A DNA stretch of 64,000 bases, taken from assembly GCF_963676685.1 (NCBI RefSeq), contig NC_092349.1, positions 76,034,473-76,098,472 on the forward strand. Direction: 5' to 3'. Shown here piece by piece: positions 4,657 through 31,893 of the stretch. Numbering within the stretch: position 1 is the first letter of the stretch; each line of letters opens with the position of its first letter. The DNA comes from Mytilus edulis. Lineage: Eukaryota. Made by a program: the position numbers and the translations under genes. Below the pieces are notes generated by a model. It searched no databases, was not told the origin of the DNA, and saw only the letters and a program-made list of their open reading frames with translations.

Positions 4657-5773
4657 CGATTTGCCAGTGGGGTGATTTGTCATGGATTCTCTCAGAATAC
4701 ATTTATATACTAGTATATGTACTTCCTTATTCAGTAGTTCGGATATTTCAGTAGTTGAAGGCATATTGATCTGTAAACTGTAAACTGTGAAGTTGAATTA
4801 TTTATTGACTATAAAACTATATAATAATGTACATCATTATAAGCATATATATACATATTTCATTGTATCAACCAAGGCTTTACCAAAACATATTTTGTTA
4901 CCAGATGTTTATTACAAAGATGTTAATTTGTCAAATATGTTTTTTGGTAAGACCTTGGTTCATATCTATTTTGTCCAAAATCTATGTGCAAAATGGTTCT
5001 TTTATGACAAATATGTCAATATGTTACTGACGCCAAAGTGACATACCAACCGCAGACCTTTCTTCACTAAAGGTTCCAGACTATAGCAGCATGTTTATTG
5101 ATGAATATCTGTTACTAACCGAATATTACAAGGCATTAATTATTTCTATTTTTAGAATTACAGCTCTTATTATACAGGTGAATTCCCAGTATATGTTTTA
5201 ATTTTGCGAATTCACGAAACAGTCTATACAGTTTTACATGTTTTATATCAACATGTATCAATTTTGCTGCCACAGATGCATATTTTTACAATAATGTCTT
5301 TTCCGTACAAATAAAGGGCAAGGCTTAAATAATTGGAAATCCAATATCTTTTTAATGGGGAATCTATATATGTACCGCATAGAAAATTACTGTACAAAAA
5401 CCTGTCCTCAAAACATTTTGTCATTTTTAAATTAATTTGACTTGAACAACTAATGGCATTCGTTATGCATTATTAAGATTGAAATCAAAGTGATTACTAT
5501 GAAGCCTATTGTCAACAGCAGTGTTCAGCTATTCATTACTTGTTTTGTGTGATGTTAGTGAATATTTGAATTTCATTTGAAGATTTTAGTACAGGAGATT
5601 TACTTTAAAAGCTTGTTTACCCTATCAGTTAGATCTAAATGGTAAGAAAAATTATGAAAAAATGGGCTGCACTCAATTATATGTCGTGTGTTAACAAGGA
5701 CTCTGTTTTGTGTTAATTCAGGCCTAAACAAAGTTGACGCAGTCTGATTGCAGCACATGTAAAGTTATAATCA

Positions 5774-7609
5774 TCATAATACGCAGCTATACGAAAATAT
5801 TTCCTTGCTAATAAGATCTCTGTCACCTAACATCTGAAAAGCTATTCCTAGTAATATTAAATTATATGCATGTACATCTATATACAGTTCTCTTGATTGA
5901 ATGTAATTACGAACTGTTTCTAATAACTTGTTTATACAATACTGACATGATTCAAAGTCATGGAGATGGCAACAACACAAAAACCGGAGGAAGTGTGCAA
6001 ATGGTTGAGAACTAATTGATTCCAATGAATTAAAGGCATGGGGACACTTTAGTTCAACTGGGATAACTGAATTTAATCTAAACTTGTGGAATAAGAAATA
6101 TGGAGATGGTATTTTCTTAACTAGTGACATTAGCTTCAATGTCTTTGTCTGCTTCAGTGTAATCTTTGACAAACATGATTCATCTGTATATTTTGACAAA
6201 GTGTAATTGATTATATCTGTTGATATTAAATGATTTTTGTGACCATAGAAGAAAGAAGCCAATTTCAGCCACCCCAATACAGCATCTGCCTGTACACCAA
6301 CCAACAACTGGCTTATGTCATGTTTGTAGAGCTTGTATTGCTGTGTATTGTTTGGTTTATTTACATGTAGTAGTGCAAAAGGTATTATTTGATATGCACT
6401 TGCAGTTGACAGTTTAAAGATACATCTGGATAATTCAGTTTTACAATGATACAGCAAAGTGTTCAATATGCGTAAAGTATTTGGAAAAGGTGACTGTACC
6501 TTCTCTATAATTATTTTCATTAATACAGTTATTTCACACATTGATCTTGTAGTTTCACATGGAAATCTTCTGAAATCATGTAAAGTCTGAGATGATGAGA
6601 AAATTTCAATTCCTTTTTGGTATGATTGTTTTAGGAAGTTGATTAATGTGTTCCATTGTTTATTGTTAAATCTTAGATAGAACAAGTTGTTATCAGGAAT
6701 GAAATAATGTAACAATGTTGAATACTCTATACAGTATAGTAACCTTTTTAAACAGGCAATAAAACAGGCAATGATATTGTAGGGTCTCCAGACTGATGTT
6801 TTATTTTCTTCTGATATCCAAAACATCCGGGTCTTCAGGAAGTATGAACACAATAAACCTTGTATGTCTTCCTCTCTGTTCACTATTTCTTTCATTAATA
6901 TCTTTATCAAAACATAGCATAGTAGCTGAGTATGACTGAAAGAATATATCAGTATCTTCTTTGCAACAGAAAATGATATTCGCCACTAAGAATTCTCATT
7001 TGTAGATCCCTTATTACCGATTGGAACAAATAAAGTATCGCATGAAGTTATTTTTAAAATAAGTTCAGATGAAGGCCATATTAAACGTGATCTTGAGATC
7101 AATGGTTGGGCTTGAGATACCTACTGATCACATTTAATACAGCTTGCAAAATCATAGTTATCATACTTGTCTGATATGCATGGACCATGAATACTCATAT
7201 ATGATGCTAATCCTTTTAATCCTTTGAACTTTTGTGATTTATAAAGCTCACTTGAAAGTAGGTGTTTTCCATTGTGTTGTTGTAGATTTTGTTTGATATG
7301 ATTTGGTAGACTATTAACAATCACATTGGAATATAATCGTAGTTGTGTAAAACATGGCTGTGCATCCTCAGTATCCATAACTAACATTGTCTTCCAATCC
7401 TGTATTAAAGCATCGTTATCTGATTCATATACTATATATTTAAGAACAATTCGCATTAAATCAAGATCACTACCTTTAAGATCCAATCCTTCTCCCTTAC
7501 TTCCACTGGTTATATAAGGAATGAATTTGCTGGTATTTTGAAAGTCTTCACATATATATTCTAATTGTCTTGCTCTTATAACTTTCTTTGATCCAATCCT
7601 CTGACACAA
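5774..7609 (-). pseudogene. cGLR paralog (copy A) body: NTase core ORF 7121-7609 and C-terminal 378-aa ORF 5774-6910, interrupted by in-frame TAG and a frameshift
   Basis: About 75% aa identity by eye to the intact cGLR over NTase (SGSKGEGLDLKGSDLDLM, LVMDTED) and helical domain. Where the intact gene reads CDQWVSQAQPW this copy reads CDQ*VSQAQPL (TGG to TAG near 7118-7120). Frame shifts between ORF 6801-6986 and ORF 5774-6910. N-terminus separated by a LINE. Confidence 0.7.
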
Positions 7610-9400
7610 CCATTGTTCAAAGACGTTCCGTTATTTACATCATTTAAAAATCTTTCAGAAGACGAAGTTAAGACCATCATAAATAAATTGCAATGTAAAT
7701 CATGCGAACTTGACATTTTGCCTACGAAAGTACTTAAATCGTTCCTTAGTGAATTGTTGCCTGTTATCACAAAGTTAGTTAACTTGTCTCTTAGTCAAGG
7801 CGTCTTCCCATTAAGATGGAAGCAAGCGGAAGTCAGGCTTCTGCTGAAAAAGGCTGATCTTGAACTAATTTACTCAAATTATAGACCAGTAAGCAACTTG
7901 TCTTTCCTGTCTAAATTAATTGAAAAATGTGCGCTATATAGACTGAATGAACACGTGAAAGATCATGATCTCCTTCCTACAAACCAATCTGCGTATCGTC
8001 AATTCCATTCGTGCGAATCGGCCCCTCTACGACTCGTTAATGACATACTCGATGGGATGGAGCATAAAGAAGTCACCGATATGATCGCCGTTGATTTAAG
8101 TGCAGCATTCGATACTGTAGATCATAGTATTTTGATAAAAGTACTCGACTATCAGTACGGTGTAAATGGAACCGCACTTAAATAGATCGATTCCTATTTG
8201 AGACCTCGAAGCTGTCGTGTAAATGTCAGGTCTACAACATCATCAGAGCGACAACTTGAGTGTAGCGTACCACAGGGAAGTTGCTTAGGTCCCTGGCTTT
8301 ATTTAGTCTACACCGGAACTCTATTCGACATTATTCCACCATCTATTACTGTGTACGGATTTGCCGACGACCATACTGCTAATAAACGTTTCGTGCCAAC
8401 ATTAACGAATGAGATGGATGCAATTCGTGACTTACAGGACTGCGCTGTTCATATAAACACCTGGATGAACAGTAACAAACTAAAAATGAACAATGCGAAA
8501 ACAGAGTTTATTCTCTTTGGCAGTCGACACCAACTCTCTAAATGTCAGACAAAAGAAATAATCATTTGTGGAGATGTTATAAAATCAAAAACATGTATAC
8601 GGTACTTAGGAGCTTTTCTGGATGAGACTCTAAACTTCAAAGACCATATTACTAAAAAATGTAAAACAGCAATGATGAACTACTACAAAATAAAGTGCAT
8701 AAGATCCTATCTATCGAAAGAAGCAACTGAAACTTTGGTCTTATCTTTGGTTATATCACATTTAGATTATTGCAATGTTATACTTTTTGGAATTTCACAA
8801 ACTGATTTATATAAATTGCAACGTATACAGAATATGTGTGCCAAACTTGTGTTAAACCGTTCTAAGTATGATAGTGCCAAGCAGGCATTGTTTGACTTAC
8901 ACTGGCTTCCGATCGAAGCCAGAATTACATTCAAAATCTTAACATATATGTACAACTGTCATGTAGGTAATGCGCCGTCATATTTGATCAATTTGTTAAA
9001 TCCTCAAGTGTCGAAACGTTCATTAAGGTCGTCAGAGTCATCTATTGGTTGTTATGCAGTCCCATATAACAAAAAGAAAACTTTTTCAGATAGAAGCTTT
9101 AGTACTGTTGGGCCAAAATTGTGGAATGAACTAGGTACAAATGTAAGAAACTCTGAATCTTTGGATACTTTTAAATGTCGGTTGAAAACATTGTATTTCC
9201 AAAATTATTTTGAACTTTTCTGACTTTTTTCTTGTGTATCACAGTGTATATTTTCAATTTTTGGTATAGTACATACATATTGTATTTTTGTATAGTATTT
9301 TTGTATTTTATATGTCATTTATGTACAACGCCGTTGAATACATATTGTATATGTAGAAATAGGCGTTTAATTAAGTTTTCATGTTTCATGTTTCATGTTT
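7610..9400 (+). mobile_element. 5'-truncated non-LTR retrotransposon (LINE) fragment, RT domain (ORFs 7613-8185 and 8198-9223, one internal TAG) plus 3' UTR ending in (TTTCATG)n
   Basis: RT motifs YRPVSNLSFLSKLIEKC, QSAYRQFHSCESA, VDLSAAFDTVDHSIL, SVPQGSCLGPWLY, YGFADDHT. Tail ttcatgtttcatgtttcatgtttca at 9376-9400. Flanked by duplicated CAA of the interrupted cGLR codon (short TSD). Confidence 0.85.
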
Positions 9401-9445
9401 CAAGTATTTATAAAAACGTAAGGATTCTGTTTTACTGTGAGACAT
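9401..9445 (-). other. Displaced first 15 codons (MSHSKTESLRFYKYL) of the cGLR pseudogene copy A, left on the far side of the LINE insertion, followed by the cGLR 5' flank
   Basis: Reverse complement of 9401-9445 reads atg tct cac agt aaa aca gaa tcc tta cgt ttt tat aaa tac ttg, matching intact start MSHSTTESLHFYKYL. Nucleotide homology to 33763-33807 continues into the upstream flank. Confidence 0.65.
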
Positions 9446-9464
9446 GGTATTTAACTTTGTAGGA

Positions 9465-10150
9465 ATTCTAAATAGAACAGTGATGTTGCATTACTGTCCA
9501 GATATTTTTTTCTCTTTTTCTTTGTGATGGTTTCTGATTGACTATCCTGTTTTATTGTCTAGATTGTCTTTAATCCTGGTGGTTTCTGGATAGTATTGTG
9601 AAATTGTCCAGATATTCTCTCTTGCCTTATAATGGTTTCTAGATGTTCGTGTCAAATTGGCCTATTCGTCCAATATTCTTTACTGTTTTCTATATGGTAC
9701 TGTATAATTGTTTAGTTCGTCTTTTATCCTTGCAATGGATTCTGTATGGTAATGTATAATTGTCTAGATATTCTAACTGTCCGTGTATTGGTTTATAGAA
9801 GTTCCTGTCAAATTGTCGAATATTTGATCTACTCTTCTTTTCTTTTACTTGTTTCTACATCAGGTACTGTATAATTGTCTAGTTTGTCTAATATCCTTGT
9901 AATGGGATCTGGGTGGTACTGTATAATTGCAAAGCTGTTCTCTCTAGCCTTGTAATGTTTTATCAATATTCTTGTCAAATTGTCCAATATTTTCTCTACC
10001 CTTTTTTTTTCTTTTCTTTTACTGGTTAATCTAAATGGTCATGTATAATGTTTGGTTTGTCTTTAACTCCTGAAGGGTTTCTGGTTTCTGATACTGTATG
10101 ATAGTCTAGACATTTGTTCATACTTGGAATGGTAAGTGTGGGTTTTCTTA
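9465..10150. repeat. Minisatellite (~60-90-bp degenerate units) in the 5' flank of the cGLR pseudogene (copy A); copy B at ~21743-22428
   Basis: Recurring blocks such as ggtactgtataattgtctag, ccttgcaatggattctg and attgtccagatattct. Homologous to the 5' flank of the intact cGLR at 33830-34210. Confidence 0.6.
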
Positions 10151-12039
10151 TGACGTTCCTTTAAAATAAACAAAGATAATCTGTTTTACATATTGTCAAA
10201 GATGGAAATTGTGTAGTCAAAGTTTGAACTGGAAATTTCCCATTTCACCTTTTCTAGTGAAGTCTTATTTCTTTTACTATTCTTTTTTATATATATTTCT
10301 GATGTAACTGACACATCTTGTTTTAACTATAAGATACATTTAAAGTCTATATTTCAATAATTTTTCCTAGTTGCATGTTTCATAAATTTCAGTGGCAGAT
10401 ACATAATTTCTAAAAAGAAAGCACTGACTGCCTAAGAGCATCACTCATGCTTCAGTTATTCCGTATTTAATTAACTACATTTCCCTCCTGCCCCCTATAA
10501 ATATGCCTCTGAAATTTGTATTTAATGTACTGCTTTTCATAGAATTATATTTTTAGAATCATTTGCAATGAGGATCCTTTTTTATAAGAAACTAAATTAG
10601 CACGCATTTCCCATACTTTCTTATTAAACAACTTAATGATATTTCCTCCTACAGTAGCTTGAACTAGGAAATATTTCTCTGTACTGAAGCAAGAGGATAT
10701 GATATGTTCAGTTTCATAACTTCAAGGTATTTTTATTCACTGTTCATTTTTAAATGTGAAATATTTATATTAAATGATATCGATAAGGAAATATTGTATG
10801 ATAAATGGAATGATAAATTATGACAGCTAGTATGAATAAAAATAATATTTCATATCAAAACTTGTAAGATTTAGCCTTTTCTTAGGTTTCAAAAATCAAA
10901 AAGTAAAAGTTTAGGCATATGGAAAGTACACGAGCTTTCTGAAGCACTCAATAGGTGCCCCTTTCTTAAAATTTAAATGTATATTTACAGCATCATACAG
11001 CTTCCCCTTTCTAAAATCAAAGTGGTGAACTTTCTAGAACATTGGATAGAACCCTTTTCTGTCACAAAGTAAAACTTGTATGGTGTTTCCAGTACCTGCT
11101 ACAACAACATTTATTTAAGGTTGGAAGTTAGGTCCGTTTAAAGAGAAACCTACTAGTCATTCAATATGCACTTGTAAAAGCATTTACACATTTGATTATT
11201 TGGTCTTTCCCCTTTATTCATGATCTATTGACTTTGAAACTTTTGCATAGTATACATGTTAAAAGTTGGTGGTTAGGTCAGTTTAAGGATAACTACTAAC
11301 TAATAAGTCACTGATACAAGGTTTGCAGTTCTCATTGGCAAATGTTATATCGCAAACAATATTTTGCCCCGTTCCTTCAGTCATGGTTCATAGACTTAAA
11401 AGTACAAGTATTTTGCATAATTACCATGTTTAAGTATTACCGTTTTAAATTTCAACATTTAAATTTCACTATCAAATTACACAATGACAACACATATCTC
11501 TGTGTCCGCAGTTTAATTCAAAACATGTATAAAATGATTGATCTTTATTTTCTATATCAGTAATAATGAGCGGAACGAACAAGTATCTTGTTCAAATAGG
11601 TTTAGCAGTACAATTCAAAATTCTCCTGAAATACTTTTTTTGACCATGTCTGCTTGTTACAATTTGTTAAGATTTGTAAAATTCAAATCATTTAGGCAAC
11701 TTTAATGCAGAAATGTGTAATCATAAAGCCTCTCTACTAGGTAACACCGTTTGCAAATGTTGTATTGGGCTCATGACGCCTGGTCCATGGAAATTCTGCA
11801 TTTCTCATTTAAAATTGAATGCTGCTTTTTGTACTTATTGTAGTGTATGAGCATGTCAAAGCATATTAAATCTAAAGCACAGATGTCCTTCGTAATTAAG
11901 ATTCATGGATTGTTAACCCTTTTACAACCCTGTTAAGTTTCAAAAGAAGCATTTATTTCTTATTATTGCAATGTTATGTACAAATCTGATATGCTATGTT
12001 ATTATAACAAAACAAACCATCTACATCATTTTGACTCTG

Positions 12040-12830
12040 TTGGAGAGAAGTCTTGTCTCATTGGTAACTTTTAATCTCTTGTGGAAAGTTGTCTCATTTG
12101 CATTCAAGCATTTCATACCATTTGCCACATCTACATCATTTGGTCTTAAGGGAGCTACCATTTGCTTTTTATCGAGGGGGGGCTAGGATGAAATTTTGAA
12201 AAAAGGCAGGACGTCGTAGCCCCCCCCCCCCCCCCCTTATAAGATCAAATGGTAGCTACCTAAGTGAAAAGTTGTCTCATATGCAATCATACACCTTACC
12301 ACATCTACATCATTTGGTCTCTGGTGGCAAGTTATCTTCATTTGGTGTCTGCTAGAAAGTTGATTGCATCACTGGTAATCCAACCACATCTAAATCATTT
12401 GGTCTTGAGTGAAGAGTTGTCTCACCGGCAATCAAACGACATCTACATTATTTGGTCTTGAGTGAAGAGTTGTCTCACCGGCAATCAAACCTCATCTACA
12501 TTCTTTGGTCTAGAGTGGAGAGTTGTCTCACCGGCAATCAAATGACTTGTACATTATTTGGTCTTGAGTGGAGAGTTGTCTCACCGGCAATCAAATGATA
12601 TCTACATTATATGGTCTTGAGTGGAGAGTTGTCTCACTGGCAATCAAACGACATCTACATCATTTGGTCTTTAGTGGAGAGTTGTCTCACTGGCAATCAA
12701 ACCACATCTACATTATTTTGTTTTGAGTGTAGAGTTGTCTCATTGGCAATCAAACCACATCTACATTATTTCGTCTATGGTGGTGAGTTATCTCATTGGC
12801 AAACATACATCATCAACATCATTTGGTATA
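12040..12830. repeat. Satellite array, ~57-bp unit (consensus roughly catctacattatttggtcttgagtggagagttgtctcaccggcaatcaaacga), about 12 units; duplicated at ~24318-25105
   Basis: Head-to-tail repeats visible directly. ORFs 12264, 12611 and 12723 are translations of the repeat. Confidence 0.85.
12151..12260. mobile_element. 110-bp palindromic insertion inside the satellite: 14-bp TIRs (ggagctaccatttg / caaatggtagctacc), G7 and C17 complementary homopolymers, flanked by TAAG direct repeats (12147-12150, 12261-12264). Copy B at 24430-24535 with C13
   Basis: Satellite unit reads continuously ...ttggtcttaag | insertion | taagtgaaaagttgtctc. Inverted termini and G/C arms seen in sequence. Confidence 0.5.
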
Positions 12831-12959
12831 CCGTTATGTAATATATGTGAAACAAATGCCAACATTTATATCAATTGTCATAACAACAAATTCCTTCCTA
12901 TTTTCAATGATTGTGACATCACTGACTAAGCTGTTCTTATATGAACGTAGCATGTACAA

Positions 12960-13650
12960 TAGGTGAAACATGTGAAGCAGGATCATCTAACCCTTATCTG
13001 TATAAAAGAGGGACGGAAGATATCAGAGGGACAGCCATACTCATTAATCGAAAATAAACTGACAACGCCATGGCTTAAAATGAAAAAGACAAACAGACAA
13101 ACAATAGTACAGAAGACACAACATAGAAAAACTAAAGAATAAGCAACACGAACCCCACCAAAAACTAGGGATGATCTCAGGTGCTCCGGAAGGGTATCCT
13201 GCTCCACACGTGGCACCCGTCGTGTTGCTCGTGTTATAACAAATCCGGTATATAGTCTAATTCGGTAGGTCACATTTATGGAAGGGAAGGGGATTGTAGT
13301 TACGACGTAAGGAACATATCCTATATCATCTGTAAAACGGTTATTCTCTAACGATCAACCAATTCGTGATGGCCTGATGATTGTATAAATCATCCATATT
13401 TTAATGAGCTTCAGGTAGGTCAGTCGTTTGTTTTCTACGTAGTTTTTTGTTAACATGTTCATGTTTTTACGCTTTGACATTGTTAGTTTTTCTTCTAGTT
13501 ATGATATTTTTAAAATGTCCTTTTGGTATATTTTACCTCTTTTTATACCAGAGCTGACGAATAGTTGCCTACATCTCCATTATTTGGACTTTGTGAATAT
13601 TAGCTTATTGACAATCATATCACGACTCCTATTTTTTATGTAAATAGTTG
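12960..13650 (-). mobile_element. SINE-like dispersed repeat containing ORF 12983-13273 (TRATRRVPRVEQDTLPEHLRSS...). Copy B at 25235-25925; related copy at ~1750-2240
   Basis: gatctcaggtgctccggaagggt (13181-13203) reappears as reverse complement ccggagcaccagagatc at 1796-1812. Similar heads ggctcctgacgttgg...gcggcgggattaaacacgtgtg at 45680-45760, 47400-47470 and 56620-56680. Confidence 0.5.
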
Positions 13651-16600
13651 GTTTTTTTTTTATAATAAACAGTATGTTGTTTCTTAATTCTTCTAGACAG
13701 TTTTATGCATTTTAATAAAATGGTGGAACTGGTTTTAGAATATTGCTATCTTAGCTGGTTTCCAGATGTCGGTAGTATATTTTGGCCGACACGGTGTATC
13801 TACTTTTCATTGCATGTGCTGTCTTTGGTTTTTCTTGTTCAAATTAGTGGAACTCCTGTTTGTAGCTAAACTATGCAGATTTTTACAGGACTAACAGTAA
13901 AACAATTTTAAGAATACTGAAACGTTACTCTATCAGGATATGAAATTTCAAGTTTGTGACAAGCAAAGATAAAAATCTGAGATACTTATTTTTTAAAGAA
14001 ACCCCTCAACACATTTTAGGCCCAATACCGTGAATTCATTAATATCCGTTAGATACTAATTTTCGTAGATTTTGTGGGTATGTGGGAACCATGAATTTAA
14101 ATGTTCAACGAATTACAAATTTCCTAGAGGAAGGTATGCAGACTTTGCCAAAAGCACGAAGTAAGATATACACGAATATGCAAGTTTTCCTCAATCCACG
14201 AAAATAAATGAATCCACAGGAGCAATTTGATTCAGAAACACGAATGAATAGTAATAAAAGATATTGACTGTTTTAATTATAAATTTTTGTCAGATATTGG
14301 GAATCCTTCTGTTTATCCATGTAGAACCATAAAAAAAATTGCGCCTACTATCCCCTACTTTTCTATTATAATTTTGCATTAGTTTAAAAAGGCAAATCTC
14401 AAAATATTAGAAAAATTCTTGTTATTTTTTAGTGTTTGAAAAAAGTACTAGCTAATGTTAAATGTTTGACTTTATATCTTTACACTATGAATGACAGACC
14501 TTCCATGTTGATTATTTTAGAGATATACTTGCATATAATTCCTTTGTATATCAAAATGTATATCAAATTGCCATCTATTGATTATTGTGGAAAATTTTAT
14601 TTATCAAATTGAAGTTTTTGATAAGAATAATGAAAGTGTTTTGTCAGTATCATATGTGAATCCTTTTTTGTTCAAGATCTGTATTGATATTAAAGTTGAT
14701 TCCCACACTTTTGTTAAATGCTCATATTCCAATTCTTGCATTATGTAATTGAGATTACAATTACAGTGTAAAGGACAGCTACCATAATTTTCAAACAATT
14801 ATACTGAAAGGTGTAAGTATTAATTGGATGTAACTCTACCCAAATACAGTTATATTGATATATCATGACAGCTGATTATTATATTGGTATTCAGGTCAAG
14901 AATGTGTGTATTTGATCTGTTACACATCTAACTAGTACTAAATGCACAAAATCTTGACATCAATAGTAGTAACATTCGTTTCATAATCATTTGATATAAG
15001 CTATTTTAAATTATTGTCTCTTTAAGTTACAGTTATGGGTAATTTGGTTGAAGCCATACACACAATTGCATAACTCTTACATGAGCGTTTTTTGCAAAGA
15101 AATATTTTTTTTATTCCCATTATATTGCTTTTTAAAAATAAGTAATTAAAAATTATCTCAACGTTAGGTATTTGTGCATGTTTATATGAATACAGGAAAT
15201 GTATTTTTCCTTAATGAATAATAAACATCAATTTGAATAAAAGATAGTTATTAATTTTTTTGTGTTGACAAATTGTTCTTGGAATTATTAAGCCAATTAT
15301 TATTGATGGTATATGAAAATATGGTACACATTTGATGATTTCTCTTAACACTCTTGTCAAATTGATTGATTTTCAAATGTTTCTTAAAAATTATGAAAAA
15401 AATCTTATAGTGTCTTCAGTTGAAATACCAAGATAATTGCATCAATAATGCAAAATTCTCCATCGTTTGGCAATAGAATAGAATTTGTGCAGTGAGATTA
15501 TGGAAATAAAATAACAAAGAAAAATTGAAAGTATGGTCAGAAAATAATTGCAGACTACTGAAATGGCTTAATCTTAACATCCATGATGCTTTAATTTTGT
15601 TGTTTGTATACTATCAATTTTATATAACAGTCTTTTAAAAAGCATGATATTTTGAAACAGAGTAGCAACATTTTTACTTGAGTTAATATGTCTGCTATCT
15701 ATATTTTGTACTATCATTAACTTCTCTGAAACACACTCGAGACTACTATATTACAGTAGTCTCAAAATAAATCTGCTTTTACTCACTTATTTAGTAGTTA
15801 AGTTATTAACTAACTACAGGCAAAGGGAAAATGCTATGAAGTAAAATGATTTATCGACTCTAGAATTATACAACAATGTTCATAATTATTTACTCATAAT
15901 TGTATAGTGTGTGTGCAGTTACATGTTTTATTGACCCTAACACTATTTAATAAGAATGTAGTTATTCATTGTAAAACAGAATAGATATGAAACAACAATT
16001 CAGGAAAGAGGAAGTATGAAAAGGTTACTTTGTTGGCCCTTCCAAACGACAAATCTAGATGTATTAAATATTAAGCCAATGAGATTTACCTCAACAATAC
16101 TTTTTTAAGATTTTCAGTTAATAATTTGAAAATGAAGAGATATATGTAGATAAGATGTATTTGACTAAGATGTTAATAGATGTAAAATATGTTTCTGGGT
16201 AGGACCTTGACTCATAAATATTGTTTTTCCAAAAAGGAGTGTAAAATAGTGAAAATATCCTTTGAGCATTACAAATTCCTATCTTATAGTGCATAATCAT
16301 TATCAATATAATTAACAAATGGCTCTCATCATACTTCCTCCTTTTTAGATGTGATTAAAGTTTTAAAAAAATCAACAGTTTATTGAATGATAAATTCATA
16401 AAATATTCCATTCATTTATTTTTAACTTCTATCCAATGAATGTATTAAATTGATCAATTCGGAAGTTAAATTAAACAAATATAAGCTACAAGTTGAGTTT
16501 TAAGCAGCATTATCAACTTTACCAATACCAATTTTGGTGCTATAGATACATATATTTATTGCCTCATCCGTACTAGTAATGCTTATGACAAAAATAGTTC

Positions 16601-18299
16601 AAAATTCAATACTTAACATGCTTAATGGATAAATTCATAATCCTCGTAGCAAAATTACTATCTAAGGCTAAGGTTATTCATTATATTAATATTGCAGTTT
16701 TAGTGATTACAATGTAATTTAATAGACTCATTCAAGGCTAGAATTAACAGAAATTAATAGGTTTTGTGTGATATGATAGCCTATTTTAATGTCTGCTTAA
16801 TAACGTTGTTTTAACCGGACAGAATTTTAAAGTCAAATGAAACTTCAAATGTAAAACAAAAAGTTGTATGTGTTTTACATACATGTACTTGAATAGTTTA
16901 ACTATAAAATAATGTACAAGAACGTTAATGTGAAGGAGAATCCTTTATATCATCAAAATCTTCATATTGTTCATTTAATATCTATATATTGTAGAAAAAA
17001 ATAAGAACTCAAACATTTAACTTCATAATGTTTGGTCTACAATTACAAAAGTTTCCCATTAGTTCTTCATGTTATATTTATTTTTTGAAGTGTTGAGTTC
17101 CTGATAGAGTACGTATAAATTGTGTAACGGCCTTCTAATCAAAACAAAAAAAACATATATCCATGTGCTTTGAATGTTTGTTTCTTTATACAATGTGACT
17201 TTACCTATTTGAATATTAAAGACAACAAATGAAATGATCATCACTTAATAGTAATAAAGAGACCTAATAAGAAACCATTTTGGCCAGAAATTATGTAATT
17301 AAAAGTCAGAGCTCGTAAATATCATATATTATCATACATCAAGGTAGAAAAATATAAATTTGACAAAAATGAATATGGAGATTTTTTTTCTGCAAATATA
17401 TAAATTACAAATGCAAAATAACGGCACACTGCTTTTAAATTATTGTTTTCCTGTACACTAATTTACCGATGTGTTCCCGTATGCAGTGAACTTATCAACT
17501 ATGAAAGATCTCGTTTGAGGTTCGGAAACTGCACAGCGCAAGTGCGAAGGAAACCCTTGACGAAGGAACGTAAACAGACGTGCAGTGGAAATTCAATAGT
17601 AATACCTGATTTTAAAGAACAAATTAAATACGCAAAATCATTTAACAACTTTACAGGAAAAGTTTAATTAACTTTCGGAATAAAAATAATATATAAATGA
17701 AATATCATGGTTCTAAATTGTACTTAATGTGTACGTGCTCCACATGCTCTCTGCGTTGATTGTTTATCAATGTCGTTATCTGGTAAACTTTGGAAACATA
17801 CTCGAAAGTTAATAAGCTTAAGACCAACAACCACTGAAATAAATATTGTTTGTCAATAATACGTTATAAATTAGTAATAAAGGTAAAACTTTGCATATAT
17901 GACTTAGCTAACTAATTCGCATTACTATAAGACGTGTTACGGTACTTATCTATCCCAAATTCATGTATTCAGTTTGATGTTATATTTGTAATTCATAATA
18001 TCGGATCTTGTCAAATGTGTTGACGTTTTACTATCATATTCATGTGTTATGGTAAGGAAAATTAATCACCGCCTTCATTTATTAGATTTGATTTTGTTTA
18101 ACGTAATCTGTACGATGTTTTACGTTTGAAGTTAGATTCAAAACAAACCGGACATAGCTATATAATATAGTTAATTGCTACTTCTGTTTTCTATTAATAA
18201 GTATTGCAATGTGCATTGTTATTAAATGTAATATCAGTATTTAGTTCAAAATATAATCTTAAATCAATTCTAATTCTATCTTACTTTTGAGATATAGTT

Positions 18300-18410
18300 T
18301 TAGTCATTCAAATGTGACGTCATTTTTGTGCTGTTTCAAAATTTCAAATATGACGTAATTTTTGTGCCTTTTCACCACTTCGTATGTGACGTCACTTGTT
18401 TCACCTATTG
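18300..18410. promoter_or_regulatory. Three ~36-bp direct repeats each carrying a CRE-like palindrome (TGACGTCA, TGACGTAA, TGACGTCA); duplicate at 30578-30688
   Basis: aaatgtgacgtcatttttgtgctgttt / aaatatgacgtaatttttgtgcctttt / cgtatgtgacgtcacttgtttcacc. TGACGTCA is the canonical CREB/ATF site, so the regulatory reading is inference only. Confidence 0.35.
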
Positions 18411-18533
18411 CGTTGAGGCCTTGACTAAGTCGGGTGTGTCTATTTTTTGTGTTGGTCTTTGTAATGTATCAGGGTTTTGTTTTCTGTAATTAGTTAAAAC
18501 TTCAGTTTAATAATGTATATCTTTTATATTCAT

Positions 18534-19887
18534 AAGCCAATTTCAGCCACCCCAATACAGCATCTGCCTGTACACCAACCAACAACTGGCTTATGTCATG
18601 TTTGTAGAGCTTGTATTGCTGTGTATTGTTTGGTTTATTTACATGTAGTAGTGCAAAAGGTATTATTTGATATGCACTTGCAGTTGACAGTTTAAAGATA
18701 CATCTGGATAATTCAGTTTTACAATGATACAGCAAAGTGTTCAATATGCGTAAAGTATTTGGAAAAGGTGACTGTACCTTCTCTATAATTATTTTCATTA
18801 ATACAGTTATTTCACACATTGATCTTGTAGTTTCACATGGAAATCTTCTGAAATCATGTAAAGTCTGAGATGATGAGAAAATTTCAATTCCTTTTTGGTA
18901 TGATTGTTTTAGGAAGTTGATTAATGTGTTCCATTGTTTATTGTTAAATCTTAGATAGAACAAGTTGTTATCAGGAATGAAATAATGTAACAATGTTGAA
19001 TACTCTATACAGTATAGTAACCTTTTTAAACAGGCAATAAAACAGGCAATGATATTGTAGGGTCTCCAGACTGATGTTTTATTTTCTTCTGATATCCAAA
19101 ACATCCGGGTCTTCAGGAAGTATGAACACAATAAACCTTGTATGTCTTCCTCTCTGTTCACTATTTCTTTCATTAATATCTTTATCAAAACATAGCATAG
19201 TAGCTGGGTATGACTGAAAGAATATATCAGTATCTTCTTTGCAACAGAAAATGATATTCGCCACTAAGAATTCTCATTTGTAGATCCCTTATTACCGATT
19301 GGAACAAATAAAGTATCGCATGAAGTTATTTTTAAAATAAGTTCAGGTGAAGGCCATATTAAACGTGATCTTGAGATCAATGGTTGGGCTTGAGATACCT
19401 ACTGATCACATTTAATACAGCTTGCAAAATCATAGTTATCATACTTGTCTGATATGCATGGACCATGAATACTCATATATGATGCTAATCCTTTTAATCC
19501 TTTGAACTTTTGTGATTTATAAAGCTCACTTGAAAGTAGGTGTTTTCCATTGTGTTGTTGTAGATTTTGTTTGATATGATTTGGTAGACTATTAACAATC
19601 ACATTGGAATATAATCGTAGTTGTGTAAAACATGGCTGTGCATCCTCAGTATCCATAACTAACATTGTCTTCCAATCCTGTATTAAAGCATCGTTATCTG
19701 ATTCATATACTATATATTTAAGAACAATTCGCATTAAATCAAGATCACTACCTTTAAGATCCAATCCTTCTCCCTTACTTCCACTGGTTATATAAGGAAT
19801 GAATTTGCTGGTATTTTGAAAGTCTTCACATATATATTCTAATTGTCTTGCTCTTATAACTTTCTTTGATCCAATCCTCTGACACAA
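18534..19887 (-). pseudogene. cGLR pseudogene copy B (tandem-duplicate copy), 3'-truncated at the duplication breakpoint; carries the same nonsense and frameshift lesions
   Basis: ORFs 19399-19887 and 18502-19188 are near-identical to 7121-7609 and the N-terminal part of 5774-6910. Homology to copy A stops at 18534 (aagccaatttcagcc). Confidence 0.7.
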
Positions 19888-21678
19888 CCATTGTTCAAAG
19901 ACGTTCCGTTATTTACATCATTTAAAAATCTTTCAGAAGACGAAGTTAAGACCATCATAAATAAATTGCAATGTAAATCATGCGAACTTGACATTTTGCC
20001 TACGAAAGTACTTAAATCGTTCCTTAGTGAATTGTTGCCTGTTATCACAAAGTTAGTTAACTTGTCTCTTAGTCAAGGCGTCTTCCCATTAAGATGGAAG
20101 CAAGCGGTAGTCAGGCTTCTGCTGAAAAAGGCTGATCTTGAACTAATTTACTCAAATTATAGACCAGTAAGCAACTTGTCTTTCCTGTCTAAATTAATTG
20201 AAAAATGTGCGCTATATAGACTGAATGAACACGTGAAAGATCATGATCTCCTTCCTACAAACCAATCTGCGTATCGTCAATTCCATTCGTGCGAATCGGC
20301 CCCTCTACGACTCGTTAATGACATACTCGATGGGATGGAGCATAAAGAAGTCACCGATATGATCGCCGTTGATTTAAGTGCAGCATTCGATACTGTAGAT
20401 CATAGTATTTTGATAAAAGTACTCGAATATCAGTACGGTGTAAATGGAACCGCACTTAAATAGATCGATTCCTATTTGAGACCTCGAAGCTGTCGTGTAA
20501 ATGTCAGGTCTACAACATCATCAGAGCGACAACTTGAGTATAGCGTACCACAGGGAAGTTGCTTAGGTCCCTGGCTTTATTTAGTCTACACCGGAACTCT
20601 ATTCGACATTATTCCACCATCTATTACTGTGTACGGATTTGCCGACGACCATACTGCTAATAAACGTTTCGTGCCAACATTAACGAATGAGATGGATGCA
20701 ATTCGTGACTTACAGGACTGCGCTGTTCATATAAACACCTGGATGAACAGTAACAAACTAAAAATGAACAATGCGAAAACAGAGTTTATTCTCTTTGGCA
20801 GTCGACACCAACTCTCTAAATGTCATACAAAAGAAATAATCATTTGTGGAGATGTTATAAAATCAAAAACATGTATACGGTACTTAGGAGCTTTTCTGGA
20901 TGAGACTCTAAACTTCAAAGACCATATTACTAAAAAATGTAAAACAGCAATGATGAACTACTACAAAATAAAGTGCATAAGATCCTATCTATCGAAAGAA
21001 GCAACTGAAACTTTGGTCTTATCTTTGGTTATATCACATTTAGATTATTGCAATGTTATACTTTTTGGAATTTCACAAACTGATTTATATAAATTGCAAC
21101 GTATACAGAATATGTGTGCCAAACTTGTGTTAAACCGTTCTAAGTATGATAGTGCCAAGCAGGCATTGTTTGACTTACACTGGCTTCCGATCGAAGCCAG
21201 AATTACATTCAAAATCTTAACATATATGTACAACTGTCATGTAGGTAATGCGCCGTCATATTTGATCAATTTGTTAAATCCTCAAGTGTCGAAACGTTCA
21301 TTAAGGTCGTCAGAGTCATCTATTGGTTGTTATGCAGTCCCATATAACAAAAAGAAAACTTTTTCAGATAGAAGCTTTAGTACTGTTGGGTCAAAATTGT
21401 GGAATGAACTAGGTACAAATGTAAGAAACTCTGAATCTTTGGATACTTTTAAATGTCGGTTGAAAACATTGTATTTCCAAAATTATTTTGAACTTTTCTG
21501 ACTTTTTTCTTGTGTATCACAGTGTATATTTTCAATTTTTGGTATAGTACATACATATTGTATTTTTGTATAGTATTTTTGTATTTTATATGTCATTTAT
21601 GTACAACGCCGTTGAATACATATTGTATATGTAGAAATAGGCGTTTAATTAAGTTTTCATGTTTCATGTTTCATGTTT
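19888..21678 (+). mobile_element. LINE RT fragment, copy B of the element at 7610-9400
   Basis: ORFs 19891-20463 and 20476-21501 differ from copy A by about 5 aa (AEV/AVV, LDY/LEY, ECS/EYS, KCQ/KCH, GPK/GSK). Same TAG interruption and (TTTCATG)n tail. Confidence 0.85.
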
Positions 21679-21723
21679 CAAGTATTTATAAAAACGTAAG
21701 GATTCTGTTTTACTGTGAGACAT
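21679..21723 (-). other. Displaced first 15 codons of cGLR pseudogene, copy B
   Basis: Identical to 9401-9445 at offset +12278; cat (ATG on minus) at 21721-21723. Confidence 0.6.
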
Positions 21724-24700
21724 GGTATTTAACTTTGTAGGAATTCTAAATAGAACAGTGATGTTGCATTACTGTCCAGATATTTTTTTCTCTTTTTCTT
21801 TGTGATGGTTTCTGATTGACTATCCTGTTTTATTGTCTAGATTGTCTTTAATCCTGGTGGTTTCTGGATAGTATTGTGAAATTGTCTAGATATTCTCTCT
21901 TGCCTTATAATGGTTTCTAGATGTTCGTGTCAAATTGGCCTATTCGTCCAATATTCTTTACTGTTTTCTATATGGTACTGTATAATTGTCTAGTTCGTCT
22001 TTTATCCTTGCAATGGATTCTGTATGGTAATGTATAATTGTCTAGATATTCTAACTGTCCGTGTATTGGTTTATAGAAGTTCCTGTCAAATTGTCGAATA
22101 TTTGATCTACTCTTCTTTTCTTTTACTTGTTTCTACATCAGGTACTGTATAATTGTCTAGTTTGTCTAATATCCTTGTAATGGGATCTGGGTGGTACTGT
22201 ATAATTGCAAAGCTGTTCTCTCTAGCCTTGTAATGTTTTATCAATATTCTTGTCAAATTGTCCAATATTTTCTCTACCCTTTTTTTTTTCTTTTCTTTTA
22301 CTGGTTAATCTAAATGGTCATGTATAATGTTTGGTTTGTCTTTAACTCCTGAAGGGTTTCTGGTTTCTGATACTGTATGATAGTCTAGACATTTGTTCAT
22401 ACTTGGAATGGTAAGTGTGGGTTTTCTTATGACATTCCTTTAAAATAAACAAAGATAATCTGTTTTACATATTGTCAAAGATGGAAATTGTGTAGTCAAA
22501 GTTTGAACTGGAAATTTCCCATTTCACCTTTTCTAGTGAAGTCTTATTTCTTTTACTATTCTTTTTTTATATATATTTCTGATGTAACTGACACATCTTG
22601 TTTTAACTATAAGATACATTTAAAGTCTATATTTCAATAATTTTTCCTAGTTGCATGTTTCATAAATTTCAGTGGCAGATACATAATTTCTAAAAAGAAA
22701 GCACTTACTGCCTAAGAGCATCACTCATGCTTCAGTTATTCCGTATTTAATTAACTACATTTCCCTCCTGCCCCTATAAATATGCCTCTGAAATTTGTAT
22801 TTAATGTACTGCTTTTCATAGAATTATATTTTTAGAATCCTTTGCAATGAGGATCCTTTTTTATAAGAAACTAAATTAGCACGCATTTCCCAAACTTTCT
22901 TATTAAACAACTTAATGATATTTCCTCCTACAGTAGCTTGAACTAGGAAATATTTCTCTGTACTGAAGCAAGAGGATATGATATGTTCAGTTTCATAACT
23001 TCAAGGTATTTTTATTCACTGTTCATTTTTAAATGTGAAATATTTATATTAAATGATATCGATAAGGAAATATTGTATGATAAATGGAATGATAAATTAT
23101 GACAGCTAGTATGAATAAAAATAATATTTCATATCAAAACTTGTAAGATTTAGCCTTTTCTTAGGTTTCAAAAATCAAAAAGTAAAAGTTTAGGCATATG
23201 GAAAGTACACGAGCTTTCTGAAGCACTCAATAGGTGCCCCTTTCTTAAAATTTAAATGTATATTTACAGCATCATACAGCTTCCCCTTTCTAAAATCAAA
23301 GTGGTGAACTTTCTAGAACATTGGATAGAACCCTTTTCTGTCACAAAGTAAGACTTGTATGGTGTTTCCAGTACCTGCTACAACAACATTTATTTAAGGT
23401 TGGAAGTTAGGTCCGTTTAAAGAGAAACCTACTAGTCATTCAATATGCACTTGTAAAAGCATTTACACATTTGATTATTTGGTCTTTCCCCTTTATTCAT
23501 GATCTATTGACTTTGAAACTTTTGCATAGTATACATGTTAAAAGTTGGTGGTTAGGTCAGTTTAAGGATAACTACTAACTAATAAGTCACTGATACAAGG
23601 TTTGCAGTTCTCATTGGCAAATGTTATATCGCAAACAATATTTTGCCCCGTTCCTTCAGTCATGGTTCATAGACTTAAAAGTACAAGTATTTTGCATAAT
23701 TACCATGTTTAAGTATTACCGTTTTAAATTTCAACATCTAAATTTTACTATCAAATTACACAATGACAACACATATCTCTGTGTCCGCAGTTTAGTTCAA
23801 AACATGTATAAAATGATTGATCTTTATTTTCTATATCAGTAATAATGAGCGGAACGAACAAGTATCTTGTTCAAATAGGTTTAGCAGTACAATTCAAAAT
23901 TCTCCTGAAATACTTTTTTTGACCAAGTCTGCTTGTTACAATTTGTTAAGATTTGTAAAATTCAAATCATTTAGGCAACTTTAATGCAGAAATGTGTAAT
24001 CATAAAGCCTCTCTACTAGGTAACACCGTTTGCAAATGTTGTATTGGGCTCATGACGCCTGGTCCATGGAAATTCTGCATTTCTCATTTAAAATTGAATG
24101 CTGCTTTTTGTACTTATTGTAGTGTATGAGCATGTCAAAGCATATTAAATCTAAAGCACAGATGTCCTTCGTAATTAAGATTCATGGATTGTTAACCCTT
24201 TTACAACCCTGTTAAGTTTCAAAAGAAGCATTTATTTCTTATTATTGCAATGTTATGTACAAATCTGATATGCTATGTTATTATAACAAAACAAACCATC
24301 TACATCATTTTGACTCTGTTGGAGAGAAGTCTTGTCTCATTGGTAACTTTTAATCTCTTGTGGAAAGTTATCTCATATGCATTCAAGCATTTCATACCAT
24401 TTGCCACATCTACATCATTTGGTCTTAAGGGAGCTACCATTTGCTTTTTATCGAGGGGGGGCTAGGATGAAATTTTGAAAAAAGGCAGGACGTCGTAGCC
24501 CCCCCCCCCCCTTATAAGATCAAATGGTAGCTACCTAAGTGAAAAGTTGTCTCATATGCAATCATACACCTTACCACATCTACATCATTTGGTCTCTGGT
24601 GGCAAGTTATCTTCATTTGGTGTCTGCTAGAAAGTTGATTGCATCACTGGTAATCCAACCACATCTAAATCATTTGGTCTTGAGTGAAGAGTTGTCTCAC

Positions 24701-27700
24701 CGGCAATCAAATGACATCTACATTATTTGGTCTTGAGTGAAGAGTTGTCTCACCGGCAATCAAACCTCATCTACATTCTTTGGTCTAGAGTGGAGAGTTG
24801 TCTCACCGGCAATCAAATGACTTGTACATTATTTGGTCTTGAGTGGAGAGTTGTCTCACCGGCAATCAAATGATATCTACATTATATGGTCTTGAGTGGA
24901 GAGTTGTCTCACTGGCAATCAAACGACATCTACATCATTTGGTCTTTAGTGGAGAGTTGTCTCACTGGCAATCAAACCACATCTACATTATTTTGTTTTG
25001 AGTGTAGAGTTGTCTCATTGGCAATCAAACCACATCTACATTATTTCGTCTATGGTGGTGAGTTATCTCATTGGCAAACATACATCATCAACATCATTTG
25101 GTATACCGTTATGTAATATATGTGAAACAAATGCCAACATTTATATCAATTGTCATAACAACAAATTCCTTCCTATTTTCAATGATTGTGACATCACTGA
25201 CTAAGCTGTTCTTATATGAACGTAGCATGTACAATAGGTGAAACATGTGAAGCAGGATCATCTAACCCTAATCTGTATAAAAGAGGGACGGAAGATATCA
25301 GAGGGACAGCCATACTCATTAATCGAAAATAAACTGACAACGCCATGGCTTAAAATGAAAAAGACAAACAGACAAACAATAGTACAGAAGACACAACATA
25401 GAAAAACTAAAGAATAAGCAACACGAACCCCACCAAAAACTAGGGATGATCTCAGGTGCTCCGGAAGGGTATCCTGCTCCACACGTGGCACCCGTCGTGT
25501 TGCTCGTGTTATAACAAATCCGGTATATAGTCTAATTCGGTAGGTCACATTTATGGAAGGGAAGGGGATTGTAGTTACGACGTAAGGAACATATCCTATA
25601 TCATCTGTAAAACGGTTATTCTCTAACGGTCAACCAATTCGTGATGGCCTGATGATTGTATAAATCATCCATATTTTAATGAGCTTCAGGTAGGTCAGTC
25701 GTTTGTTTTCTACGTAGTTTTTTGCTAACATGTTCATGTTTTTACGCTTTGACATTGTTAGTTTTTCTTCTAGTTATGATATTTTTAAAATGTCCTTTTG
25801 GTATATTTTACCTCTTTTTATACCAGAGCTGACGAATAGTTGCCTACATCTCCATCATTTGGACTTTGTGAATATTAGCTTATTGACAATCATATCACAA
25901 CTCCTATTTTTTTATGTAAATAGTTGGGTTTTTTTTTATAATAAACAGTATGTTGTTTCTTAATTCTTCTAGACAGTTTTATGCATTTTAATAAAATGGT
26001 GGAACTGGTTTTAGAATATTGCTATCTTAGCTGGTTTCCAGATGTCGGTAGTATATTTTGGCCGACACGGTGTATCTACTTTTCATTGCATGTGCTGTCT
26101 TTGGTTTTTCTTGTTCAAATTAGTGGAACTCCTGTTTGTAGCTAAACTATGCAGATTTTTACAGGACTAACAGTAAAACAATTTTAAGAATACTGAAACG
26201 TTACTCTATCAGGATATGAAATTTCAAGTTTGTGACAAGCAAAGATAAAAATCTGAGATACTTATTTTTTAAAGAAACCCCTCAACACATTTTAGGCCCA
26301 ATACCGTGAATTCATTAATATCCGTTAGATACTAATTTTCGTAGATTTTGTGGGTATGTGGGAACCATGAATTTAAATGTTCAACGAATTACAAATTTCC
26401 TAGAGGAAGGTATGCAGACTTTGCCAAAAGCACGAAGTAAGATATACACGAATATGCAAGTTTTCCTCAATCCACGAAAATAAATGAATCCACAGTAGCA
26501 ATTTGATTCAGAAACACGAATGAATAGTAATAAAAGATATTGACTGTTTTAATTATAAATTTTTGTCAGATATTGGGAATCCTTCTGTTTATCCATGTAG
26601 AACCATAAAAAAAATTGCGCCTACTATCCCCTACTTTTCTATTATAATTTTGCATTAGTTTAAAAAGGCAAATCTCAAAATATTAGAAAAATTCTTGTTA
26701 TTTTTTAGTGTTTGAAAAAAGTACTAGCTAATGTTAAATGTTTGACTTTATATCTTTACACTATGAATGACAGACCTTCCATGTTGATTATTTTAGAGAT
26801 ATACTTGCATATAATTCCTTTGTATATCAAAATGTATATCAAAGTGCCATCTATTGATTATTGTGGAAAATTTTATTTATCAAATTGAAGTTTTTGATAA
26901 GAATAATGAAAGTGTTTTGTCAGTATCATATGTGAATCCTTTTTTGTTCAAGATCTGTATTGATATTAAAGTTGATTCCCACACTTTTGTTAAATGCTCA
27001 TATTCCAATTCTTGCATTATGTAATTGAGATTACAATTACAGTGTAAAGGACAGCTACCATAATTTTCAAACAATTATACTGAAAGGTGTAAGTATTAAT
27101 TGGATGTAACTCTACCCAAATACAGTTATATTGATATATCATGACAGCTGATTATTATATTGGTATTCAGGTCAAGAATGTGTGTATTTGATCTGTTACA
27201 CATCTAACTAGTACTAAATGCACAAAATCTTGACATCAATAGTAGTAATATTCGTTTCATAATCATTTGATATAAGCTATTTTAAATTATTGTCTCTTTA
27301 AGTTACAGTTATGGGTAATTTGGTTGAAGCCATACACACAATTGCATAACTCTTACATGAGCGTTTTTTGCAAAGAAATATTTTTTTTATTCCCATTATA
27401 TTGCTTTTTAAAAATAAGTAATTAAAAATTATCTCAACGTTAGGTATTTGTGCATGTTTATATGAATACAGGAAATGTATTTTTCCTTAATGAATAATAA
27501 ACATCAATTTGAATAAAAGATAGTTATTAATTTTTTTGTGTTGACAAATTGTTCTTGGAATTATTAAGCCAATTATTATTGATGGTATATGAAAATATGG
27601 TACACATTTGATGATTTCTCTTAACACTCTTGTCAAATTGATTGATTTTCAAATGTTTCTTAAAAATTATGAAAAAATCTTATAGTGTCTTCAGTTGAAA

Positions 27701-30700: not shown

Positions 30701-31893
30701 TAAGTCGGGTGTGTCTATTTTTTGTGTTGGTCTTTGTAATGTATCAGGGTTTTGTTTTCTGTAATTAGTTAAAACTTCAGTTTAATAATGTATATCTTTT
30801 ATATTCATTTGATAAAATTTACTGTTTGCAATAGCATAAATTGTTCTAAATAATAAGGATGTTCTTATCCCAAGCAGAAAACCCTATCTGTATTTGGCAC
30901 AGCCTTTTTGAACTTATGATCCTCAGTGCTGTACAATTTTGTACTTTTTTTTACTTTCGAACTTTTATATCTGGGCGTCACTGGTGAGTCTTGTGTGGAC
31001 GAGTCGCGTTTCTGACGTATTGAATTTTAAACCTGATGCCTTTTGTTAGCTATTATTCATGTGTTTCTAATATGTCTAATATGTTCTATTTATTTGTATT
31101 GTAATCCTGTAATATTATGTTGTCATTTTAATGTTATATTTAACATTGGCATTAAAGTGCGAGGTTTGGCATGCCACAAAACCAGGTTCAACCCACCATT
31201 TCTTTCTTTAAAAATGTCCTGTACCAAATCAGGAATATGGCCATTGTTATATTAAAGTTCGTTTCTGTGTGTTACATTTTAACGTTGTGTTAGCGTTGTG
31301 TCGTTTATTTTCTCTTATATTTGAGTGTGAATTCACATTACTATAAGACGTGTCACGGTACTTTTCTATCCCAAATTCATGTATTTGGTTTTGATGTTAT
31401 ATTTGTTATTCTCGTCGGATTTTGTCTAATGCTTAGTCCGTTTCTGTGTGTGTTACATTTTAATGTTGTGTCGTTGTTCTCCTCTTATATTTAATGCGTT
31501 TCCCTCAGTTTTAGTTTGTTATCCCGATTTTGTATTTTGCCTATAGATTTAAGAGTTTTGAACAGCGGTATACTACTGTTGCCTTTATTTAACTACATAT
31601 GCATGCATTGGTTCAAAAATTTCGATAACAATAATATTACAAAAAAACCTTTGTGATTTAAAGTTATTAGTACAATAAATATTACTAAAAAGCAAAGCAA
31701 GCTTGTATGACAATAGCAGTGTGATCTTATTGGCTATTGTTATCAAAAGAATGAAAATATTGAGTTACAAACTGCAGCTGTGCTATTAGCGCAGTTAATT
31801 TATATTTCGAGACAATGTATGGTTATTTTATGCATACTAAATTCTATAAACCATACTGTTAAAGGGCACAATCGTTTGGTCATAACTCAGGCC

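Follow-up and report, generated by a model that had tools for sequence, protein, structure and literature searches.

A probable non-processed pseudogene of the Mab-21/cGLR-like family in Mytilus edulis, disrupted by an antisense LINE

Introduction

Bivalve genomes have been reported to carry more than 200 cGLR genes each (PMC9980059), and decayed copies are therefore to be expected among them. A stretch of 64,000 nucleotides from Mytilus edulis (contig NC_092349.1), referred to below as the window, holds an intact 637-aa gene of the Mab-21/cGLR-like family together with a disrupted paralog of it, located at 5713-9445 on the minus strand, which is very probably a non-processed pseudogene whose start codon has been separated from the gene body by a long interspersed nuclear element (LINE). 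The closest described proteins are the bivalve cGLRs, such as Cv-cGLR1 from Crassostrea virginica (PDB 8GJW; PMC9980059), with which the intact paralog has the domains, the fold and the G-S...D-x-D motif in common. In contrast, the solved cGLRs lack the helical extension of about 290 residues (350-637) of the Mytilus subfamily, the locus studied here is a dead copy, and activity and ligand of the subfamily are putative only. The literature search yielded no paper dealing with Mytilus cGLRs or with the C-terminal extension of this subfamily, nor any characterised member of the Mytilus subfamily to which the intact paralog belongs.

Non-processed pseudogenes disrupted by a retrotransposon are a textbook class. 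The present locus shares with them a nearby parent gene in the same orientation, a transposable element within a coding exon bounded by a target-site duplication, an accumulation of nonsense and frameshift lesions and neutral-looking substitutions, and its oddities are the partial tandem re-duplication of the dead gene and a target-site duplication of 3 bp. The inserted element matches the APE-type LINEs in its reverse transcriptase (RT) domain, in the endonuclease of its full-length relatives, in its 5' truncation, in its tandem-repeat tail and in its many near-identical copies, and differs from them in that the copy in the window has neither ORF1 nor a 5' end. CR1/L2/Jockey-like elements, which we take to be APE-type LINEs with short tandem-repeat 3' tails, offer a likeness to this element and not a clade assignment. 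A further comparison is provided by the gene presence/absence variation described in Mytilus (Gerdol et al. 2020, PMC7653742), to which the present locus is comparable as a lineage-restricted member of an expanded immune-type gene family, situated in a structurally unstable region with a transposable element and a recent tandem duplication; that variation, however, concerns the presence or absence of whole genes among individuals, whereas a single assembly is considered here.

The Disrupted Copy

The disrupted copy was found to consist of a start-codon stub and a gene body (Table 1), both of which were matched by blastn to the intact paralog. The stub and the 13 nt upstream of it (58 bp, 9458-9401) were 91% identical to the intact gene, with a weaker similarity of 67–82% over about 450 bp more of the 5' flank; the resemblance of stub and flank to the paralog, claimed in an initial annotation made from the letters of the window, is thus borne out. 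The body (7609-5705) matched the intact locus at 80% over about 1.9 kb, and amino-acid identity between the two genes was 70% in each half. When the LINE was taken out in silico, the entire coding sequence (CDS) was recovered in one frame with two stops only. Full-length homology in a single frame and the presence of disabling lesions uphold the proposal that a paralog of the cGLR family was inactivated by a LINE and by point lesions. As a separate observation, a repeat of about 167 bp lies upstream of the pseudogene, at 9696-10008 (and 21974-22286), with a match of 67–74% to the 5' flank of the intact paralog; a repeat common to the two upstream regions, or a small non-autonomous element, may account for it.

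Aligned to the intact paralog, the blastn segments of stub and body have exactly 3 nt of the query in common, which identifies the 1,791 bp between the segments as an insertion into codon 15/16 and agrees with the earlier description of a 1.8-kb, 5'-truncated LINE lying between the stub and the remaining CDS. CAA, likewise reported before, was found at both junctions, although a duplication of only 3 bp could also have arisen by chance or through microhomology with the tail repeat. The open reading frame (ORF) that encodes the RT and C-terminal part of the LINE (7610-9223) is on the plus strand, in frame from the first base and 537 codons long, with a single in-frame TAG at 8183-8185, and RVT_1 was matched on both of its pieces. 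The 3' end is made up of a 3' untranslated region and a (TTTCATG)3.7 tail that adjoins the stub; the tail was placed by Tandem Repeats Finder at 9377-9402, its last 2 nt overlapping the CAA duplication. Relatives with 96–99% amino-acid identity were found in many copies in M. edulis and M. galloprovincialis. One full-length relative (P0125, 938 aa) carries an Exo_endo_phos endonuclease upstream of RVT_1, and the window copy aligns to it from residue 402, which demonstrates the 5' truncation. Since the RT frame lies on the plus strand and the gene on the minus strand, the LINE is antisense to the gene, and its description as sense-oriented has to be reversed.

Removal of the LINE as an intron was considered and rejected, as in the sense of the gene the insert has AA...GG at its ends instead of GT...AG and the CDS of the family is single-exon; in the intact paralog and in its relatives from M. 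trossulus and M. californianus the gene length equals 3 x (aa+1). Splicing through the GT/AG pairs present in the stub and in the resumed CDS was also rejected, given that the in-frame joins delete conserved residues and still meet the TAG of codon 177. Other retroelement remnants were noted on the minus strand within 42094-44713 and 61625-63025, where ORFs 43043-43660 and 61625-63025 match RVT_1, and the flanking ORFs 42094-42924 and 43730-44713 gave no Pfam match.

Within the gene body, the change of TGG to TAG right after CDQ was confirmed at codon 177. The single frameshift that had been placed near 6910 was not recovered, the LINE-less CDS being in one frame; at the break, codon 222 has turned from CAG into TAG, a further nonsense mutation, and the frameshift had been deduced from the restart of an ORF at 6910. 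A frameshift was found instead near the 3' end, where the insertion of CTTA swaps the last 30 or so family-conserved residues for nine unrelated ones, so that the remaining frame is not intact as had been stated. The old tail (LARKYFRIAA..N.T.AA.RLRQLC) was nevertheless readable in the other frame, by tblastn and by alignment, as far as the TAA at 5713-5715. Additionally, five family-invariant residues were found to be lost in the nucleotidyltransferase (NTase) half, namely R29Q, W175*, W182L, G203D and E229K.

Self-comparison of the window revealed a 12.3-kb tandem duplication, the copies of which show 41 scattered differences and meet at a blunt junction without microhomology. Its left boundary lies inside the pseudogene, and the second pseudogene copy, which the first reading of the window had missed, is truncated for this reason; it contains the LINE and both TAG codons. 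As both copies hold the insertion and the two stops, these lesions predate the duplication, and their having been assembled twice argues against sequencing error. The CDS shared by the two copies differs at two sites only, neither of them in the shared part of the open frame, which is too few for a test of recent evolution. The duplication is either very recent or the result of two haplotypes joined in the assembly. A 53-bp tandem repeat with 8.7 copies was also noted at 12369-12827 (and 24644-25102).

Table 1. Coordinates of the features discussed, as positions within the window
Feature	Position	Strand	Basis or remark
Start-codon stub, 15 codons, MSHSKTESLRFYKYL	9445..9401	minus	blastn match to the intact paralog
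Rest of the pseudogene CDS, codon 15/16 to the ancestral stop	5713..7609	minus	80% nt and 70% aa identity to the intact paralog
5'-truncated APE-type LINE, 1,791 bp	7610..9400	plus (antisense to the gene)	RVT_1 matches, tail, relatives
CAA target-site duplication copies	7607-7609 and 9401-9403	TTG (codon 15) on the gene strand	Junction sequences
Nonsense codon 177, TGG to TAG, after CDQ	7121..7123	minus	Trp that is invariant in the family (W175 in the intact protein)
Nonsense codon 222, CAG to TAG	6986..6988	minus	Break upstream of 6910
4-nt insertion, CTTA	5812..5815	minus	Alignment; placement ambiguous by a few nt
378-codon open frame	5774..6910	minus	Covers Mab-21_C and the greater part of the helical extension; last 9 residues out of frame
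12,278-bp unit, two head-to-tail copies	6256-18533 and 18534-30808		Self-comparison, 99.67% identity
Second, 3'-truncated pseudogene copy	18534..21723	minus	Stub 21679-21723, LINE 19888-21678, codons 16-466 at 18534-19887
Intact paralog	31894-33807	minus	Single exon, 637 aa, cGAS-like fold and helical C-terminal extension

The Intact Paralog and Its Family

The 637-codon ORF of the intact paralog has a full-length, 100% match in an NCBI entry named 'uncharacterized protein [Mytilus edulis]', and more than 680 related proteins, nearly all of them from Mytilus, were also matched. In Pfam, the intact protein matched Mab-21 (PF03281, E = 1.9e-7, partial) followed by Mab-21_C (PF20266, E = 1.8e-14), and PF20266 was similarly matched by the C-terminal ORF of the pseudogene (E = 2.9e-14). 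Among solved structures, the top sequence match was the cGLR 8gjy (E = 7e-12). The bilobal fold was assessed on an AlphaFold2 model of the intact paralog (pLDDT 83.6). When this model was compared with the PDB by Foldseek, cGAS was matched with probability 1.00 and a target TM of 0.66–0.72, and Cv-cGLR1 and Sp-cGLR1 were matched with target TM values of 0.68 and 0.61, respectively, both with probability 1.00; residues from about 350 to 637, some 290 in all, form an extra all-helical extension in the model. The active-site motif was tested as G-[GS]-x(9-13)-[DE]-h-[DE] plus a third acidic residue. G50, S51, D62 and D64, which make up the G-S...D-x-D motif, were invariant across 55 family members and are kept by the pseudogene, as SGSKGEGLDLKGSDLD, and a candidate for the third catalytic carboxylate may lie within the conserved VMDTED. 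The modelled fold and the motif justify the name cGLR-like for the family, with enzymatic activity, and ligand-activated synthesis of a nucleotide second messenger for STING, remaining putative. No relative of the intact paralog above about 70% identity was found in the annotated proteomes of M. galloprovincialis, M. trossulus, M. californianus and M. coruscus, and the gene may be lineage-restricted or dispensable, of the presence/absence kind. Some homologs of the subfamily (among P0099-P0118) match TPR families of Pfam in their C-terminal extension, and the cGLR-like homolog P0108 (824 aa) has TIR domains as well; no published description of such an architecture was found.

Selective Constraint

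A pairwise comparison of the pseudogene with its intact neighbour, suggested by the initial annotation, was carried out by the Nei-Gojobori method and gave dN = 0.170, dS = 0.417 and a dN/dS ratio (omega) of 0.41. The paralog pair is old, and the greater part of its divergence preceded the inactivation. Branch-specific omega was estimated in three-taxon comparisons with 1,000 bootstraps and with two outgroups, the coding DNA of M. trossulus P0005 and M. californianus P0008, each intact and single-exon; the NTase half and the C-terminal 366 codons were also compared, and the bootstrap P denotes the probability that the omega of the pseudogene is no higher than that of the intact gene. For the whole gene, the pseudogene branch reached omega values of 0.57 [0.36-0.98] and 0.64 [0.41-1.22] with the two outgroups, against 0.30 and 0.26 on the intact branch (P = 0.004–0.014). 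The difference was larger in the NTase half, with 0.72–0.74 for the pseudogene and 0.19–0.22 for the intact gene (P ≤ 0.002).

The same tendency was observed in the substitutions themselves. At sites where the other three sequences agree, the changes specific to the pseudogene were distributed over the three codon positions as 28:31:26, compared with 43–52% of changes at third positions in the three intact lineages (Fisher p = 0.011). In the NTase half, the lineage-specific nonsynonymous and synonymous changes numbered 14 and 4, and the pseudogene deviated at 8 of 70 columns with a conservation of 90% or more, a level reached by only one of the 91 full-length family members. From these comparisons, the relaxation of constraint thus appears to be older than the LINE insertion, in the NTase half at any rate. 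Besides these results, dS on the intact paralog's own branch was seen to be about 0.40 in the NTase half and about 0.21 in the C-terminal half, an approximately twofold contrast, and dS on the pseudogene branch was short, at about 0.15 in both halves; the contrast on the intact branch may be due to heterogeneous rates or to earlier gene conversion between paralogs.

Age of the Lesions and Possible Polymorphism

The age of the visible lesions was approached from the LINE and from the stops. Compared with the consensus of its six closest relatives, the LINE copy differs in 16 of 537 residues and has one stop, which by our own conversion corresponds to a nucleotide divergence of about 1.1–1.3%. 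Of random substitutions, approximately 4.7% in the ORF of the LINE and 5.6% in the pseudogene would create a stop; the single LINE stop then corresponds to a divergence d of about 0.013, and the pair found in 625 pseudogene codons to about 0.019. The visible lesions are accordingly estimated to be young, at about 1–2% neutral divergence, because the LINE and the stop counts agree and the frameshifted tail can still be read. The earlier statement that inactivation is recent therefore holds for the visible lesions (d of about 0.011–0.019), whereas relaxed constraint appears to extend over more of the pseudogene's own branch, in the NTase half at any rate. No intact ortholog or allele with more than 71% identity to the conceptual translation was found among the 120 best matches from 5.8 billion clusters.

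Given the youth of the insertion and the presence/absence variation of mussels, polymorphism of the insertion is plausible. A more far-reaching explanation would have the LINE, and possibly the stops, segregating against intact alleles in M. edulis, so that the locus would be a null allele of the presence/absence type and not a pseudogene that has gone to fixation. Gene presence/absence variation is indeed massive in mussels (PMC7653742), the insertion is young (d of about 0.012), the many 96–99% identical copies of the LINE family indicate recent activity, and neither the pseudogene nor its intact neighbour has a relative above 71% in the other Mytilus proteomes searched. The relaxation and the invariant losses of the NTase half suggest, however, a loss of function that preceded the LINE; all lesions are present in both tandem copies, and no intact allele was encountered in any annotated Mytilus proteome searched. 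This explanation is consequently considered improbable.

The C-Terminal Open Frame

The 378-codon frame announced by the initial annotation is present, but it opens at TTG and not at an internal Met; its first ATG is codon 6 (6893-6895), which leaves 373 codons, and the open stretch measures 403 codons from stop to stop. Its identity to the intact gene, given before as about 75%, was found to be 70% in amino acids (about 80% in nucleotides). Several results obtained for this part of the gene weigh against a pseudogene throughout. Over the C-terminal 366 codons, omega was 0.49–0.55 for the pseudogene and 0.35–0.39 for the intact gene (P = 0.2–0.3), a relaxation that is not significant. In the C-terminal half, 4 of 60 conserved columns are changed, a number that falls inside the spread seen among family members; this half has lost none of its 20 invariant residues and shows 12 nonsynonymous to 12 synonymous lineage-specific changes. 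Both stops fall within the first 40% of the gene (P = 0.16 under a uniform distribution), and short called fragments would be missed by the database searches.

These results are also the ones that lend some colour to an explanation in which the NTase half was the first to decay and the C-terminal part, composed of the Mab-21_C lobe and the helical extension, has been selected as an NTase-less product, translated from the ATG at 6893-6895 and acting as a decoy or regulator of intact cGLRs. The two parts of the pseudogene differ in the expected direction in omega, in the ratio of nonsynonymous to synonymous changes, in deviations at conserved columns and in invariant losses (five against none), and both stops lie upstream of the ORF. 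Nevertheless, these contrasts between the halves are not significant (Fisher p = 0.11 and 0.38; P = 0.23–0.30 by bootstrap) and are not mutually independent, and the changes in the C-terminal part are spread uniformly over the codon positions (13:15:16). Neither codon counts nor conserved columns, codon-position spectra or branch omega gave a significant selection signal in either direction for this part, which on these counts looks less decayed than the NTase half, although not significantly so. The probability of finding 378 codons without a stop was calculated as 0.28–0.53 at d = 0.01–0.02, that is, about 0.3–0.5 at the estimated age, and an open frame that is likely by chance is no evidence of selection. 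In the AlphaFold2 model of the intact paralog, moreover, the start of the ORF would fall inside a helix of the C-lobe (H238-255), and the conserved C-terminal residues have been frameshifted away. A promoter is not evident either, as a LINE that is 5'-truncated and directed away from the ORF cannot supply one in the sense direction.

Exact look-ups of the 378-aa and 373-aa products returned no record, a weak negative, since M. edulis P0001 and P0004 were also unmatched and the M. edulis assembly is apparently absent from the exact-match index. Similarly, the 120 best matches mentioned above, among which short fragments would not rank, included no protein with an identity to the locus above 71%. 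The decoy put forward by the initial annotation has therefore gained no positive support, and selection for an NTase-less product is regarded as very unlikely. A marginally fainter chance is given to the related version in which a cryptic start, lying downstream of the antisense LINE, gives rise to a transcript of the 373–378-codon frame, and this frame is selected as a catalytically dead partner or decoy modulating intact cGLR-like paralogs; if a decoy did exist, the milder decay of the C-terminal half compared with the NTase half would be its signature. Finally, an assembly or sequencing artefact, with the LINE, the stops or the tandem duplication not in the animal, is scarcely credible, for although the 99.67% identity and blunt junction of the duplication could reflect a mis-joined haplotype, its copies differ at 41 scattered sites but have the LINE, both TAGs and the CAA junctions in common, features that were thus assembled twice from different reads, the LINE junctions are base-exact relative to the paralog, and the lesions agree with the independent neutral pattern of substitution.

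Proposed History of the Locus

In the reading preferred here, that of a non-processed pseudogene of a Mab-21/cGLR family gene, the course of events is as follows. Two old paralogs were arranged in tandem, head to tail, on the minus strand, and constraint on one of them, at least on its NTase half, probably began to relax before the LINE arrived. A young APE-type LINE entered this downstream copy in antisense orientation by target-primed reverse transcription, at codon 15/16 of the sole coding exon, and cut the start codon off from the gene body. A transcript from the old promoter could then encode only a 19-residue peptide, MSHSKTESLRFYKYLKHET, stopping four codons into the antisense LINE. The copy further bears W177*, Q222*, a 4-nt insertion that shifts the frame close to the 3' end, and the five replacements of invariant residues in the NTase half, and a later 12.3-kb tandem duplication recopied the LINE together with the stub and three quarters of the already dead gene, counted from its 5' end. 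The locus presumably makes no functional protein, and the 378-codon frame would be a stretch that has not yet been struck by a stop.

Conclusions

The locus is an ordinary young pseudogene in a very large gene family with fast turnover, one more decayed member of the bivalve cGLR-like radiation, and is of little import beyond annotation. Masking of 5713-9445 and 18534-21723 as pseudogene would prevent N-terminally truncated gene models. A bearing on cGLR regulation would arise only if the C-terminal frame were expressed and constrained. The LINE family is young and probably still mobile in the M. edulis complex, and the locus is a candidate marker for structural polymorphism. For the family, the window presents birth-and-death at one locus, with an old paralog pair, one copy of which was relaxed, struck in its exon by an active LINE and by point lesions, and then included in a fresh 12.3-kb duplication.

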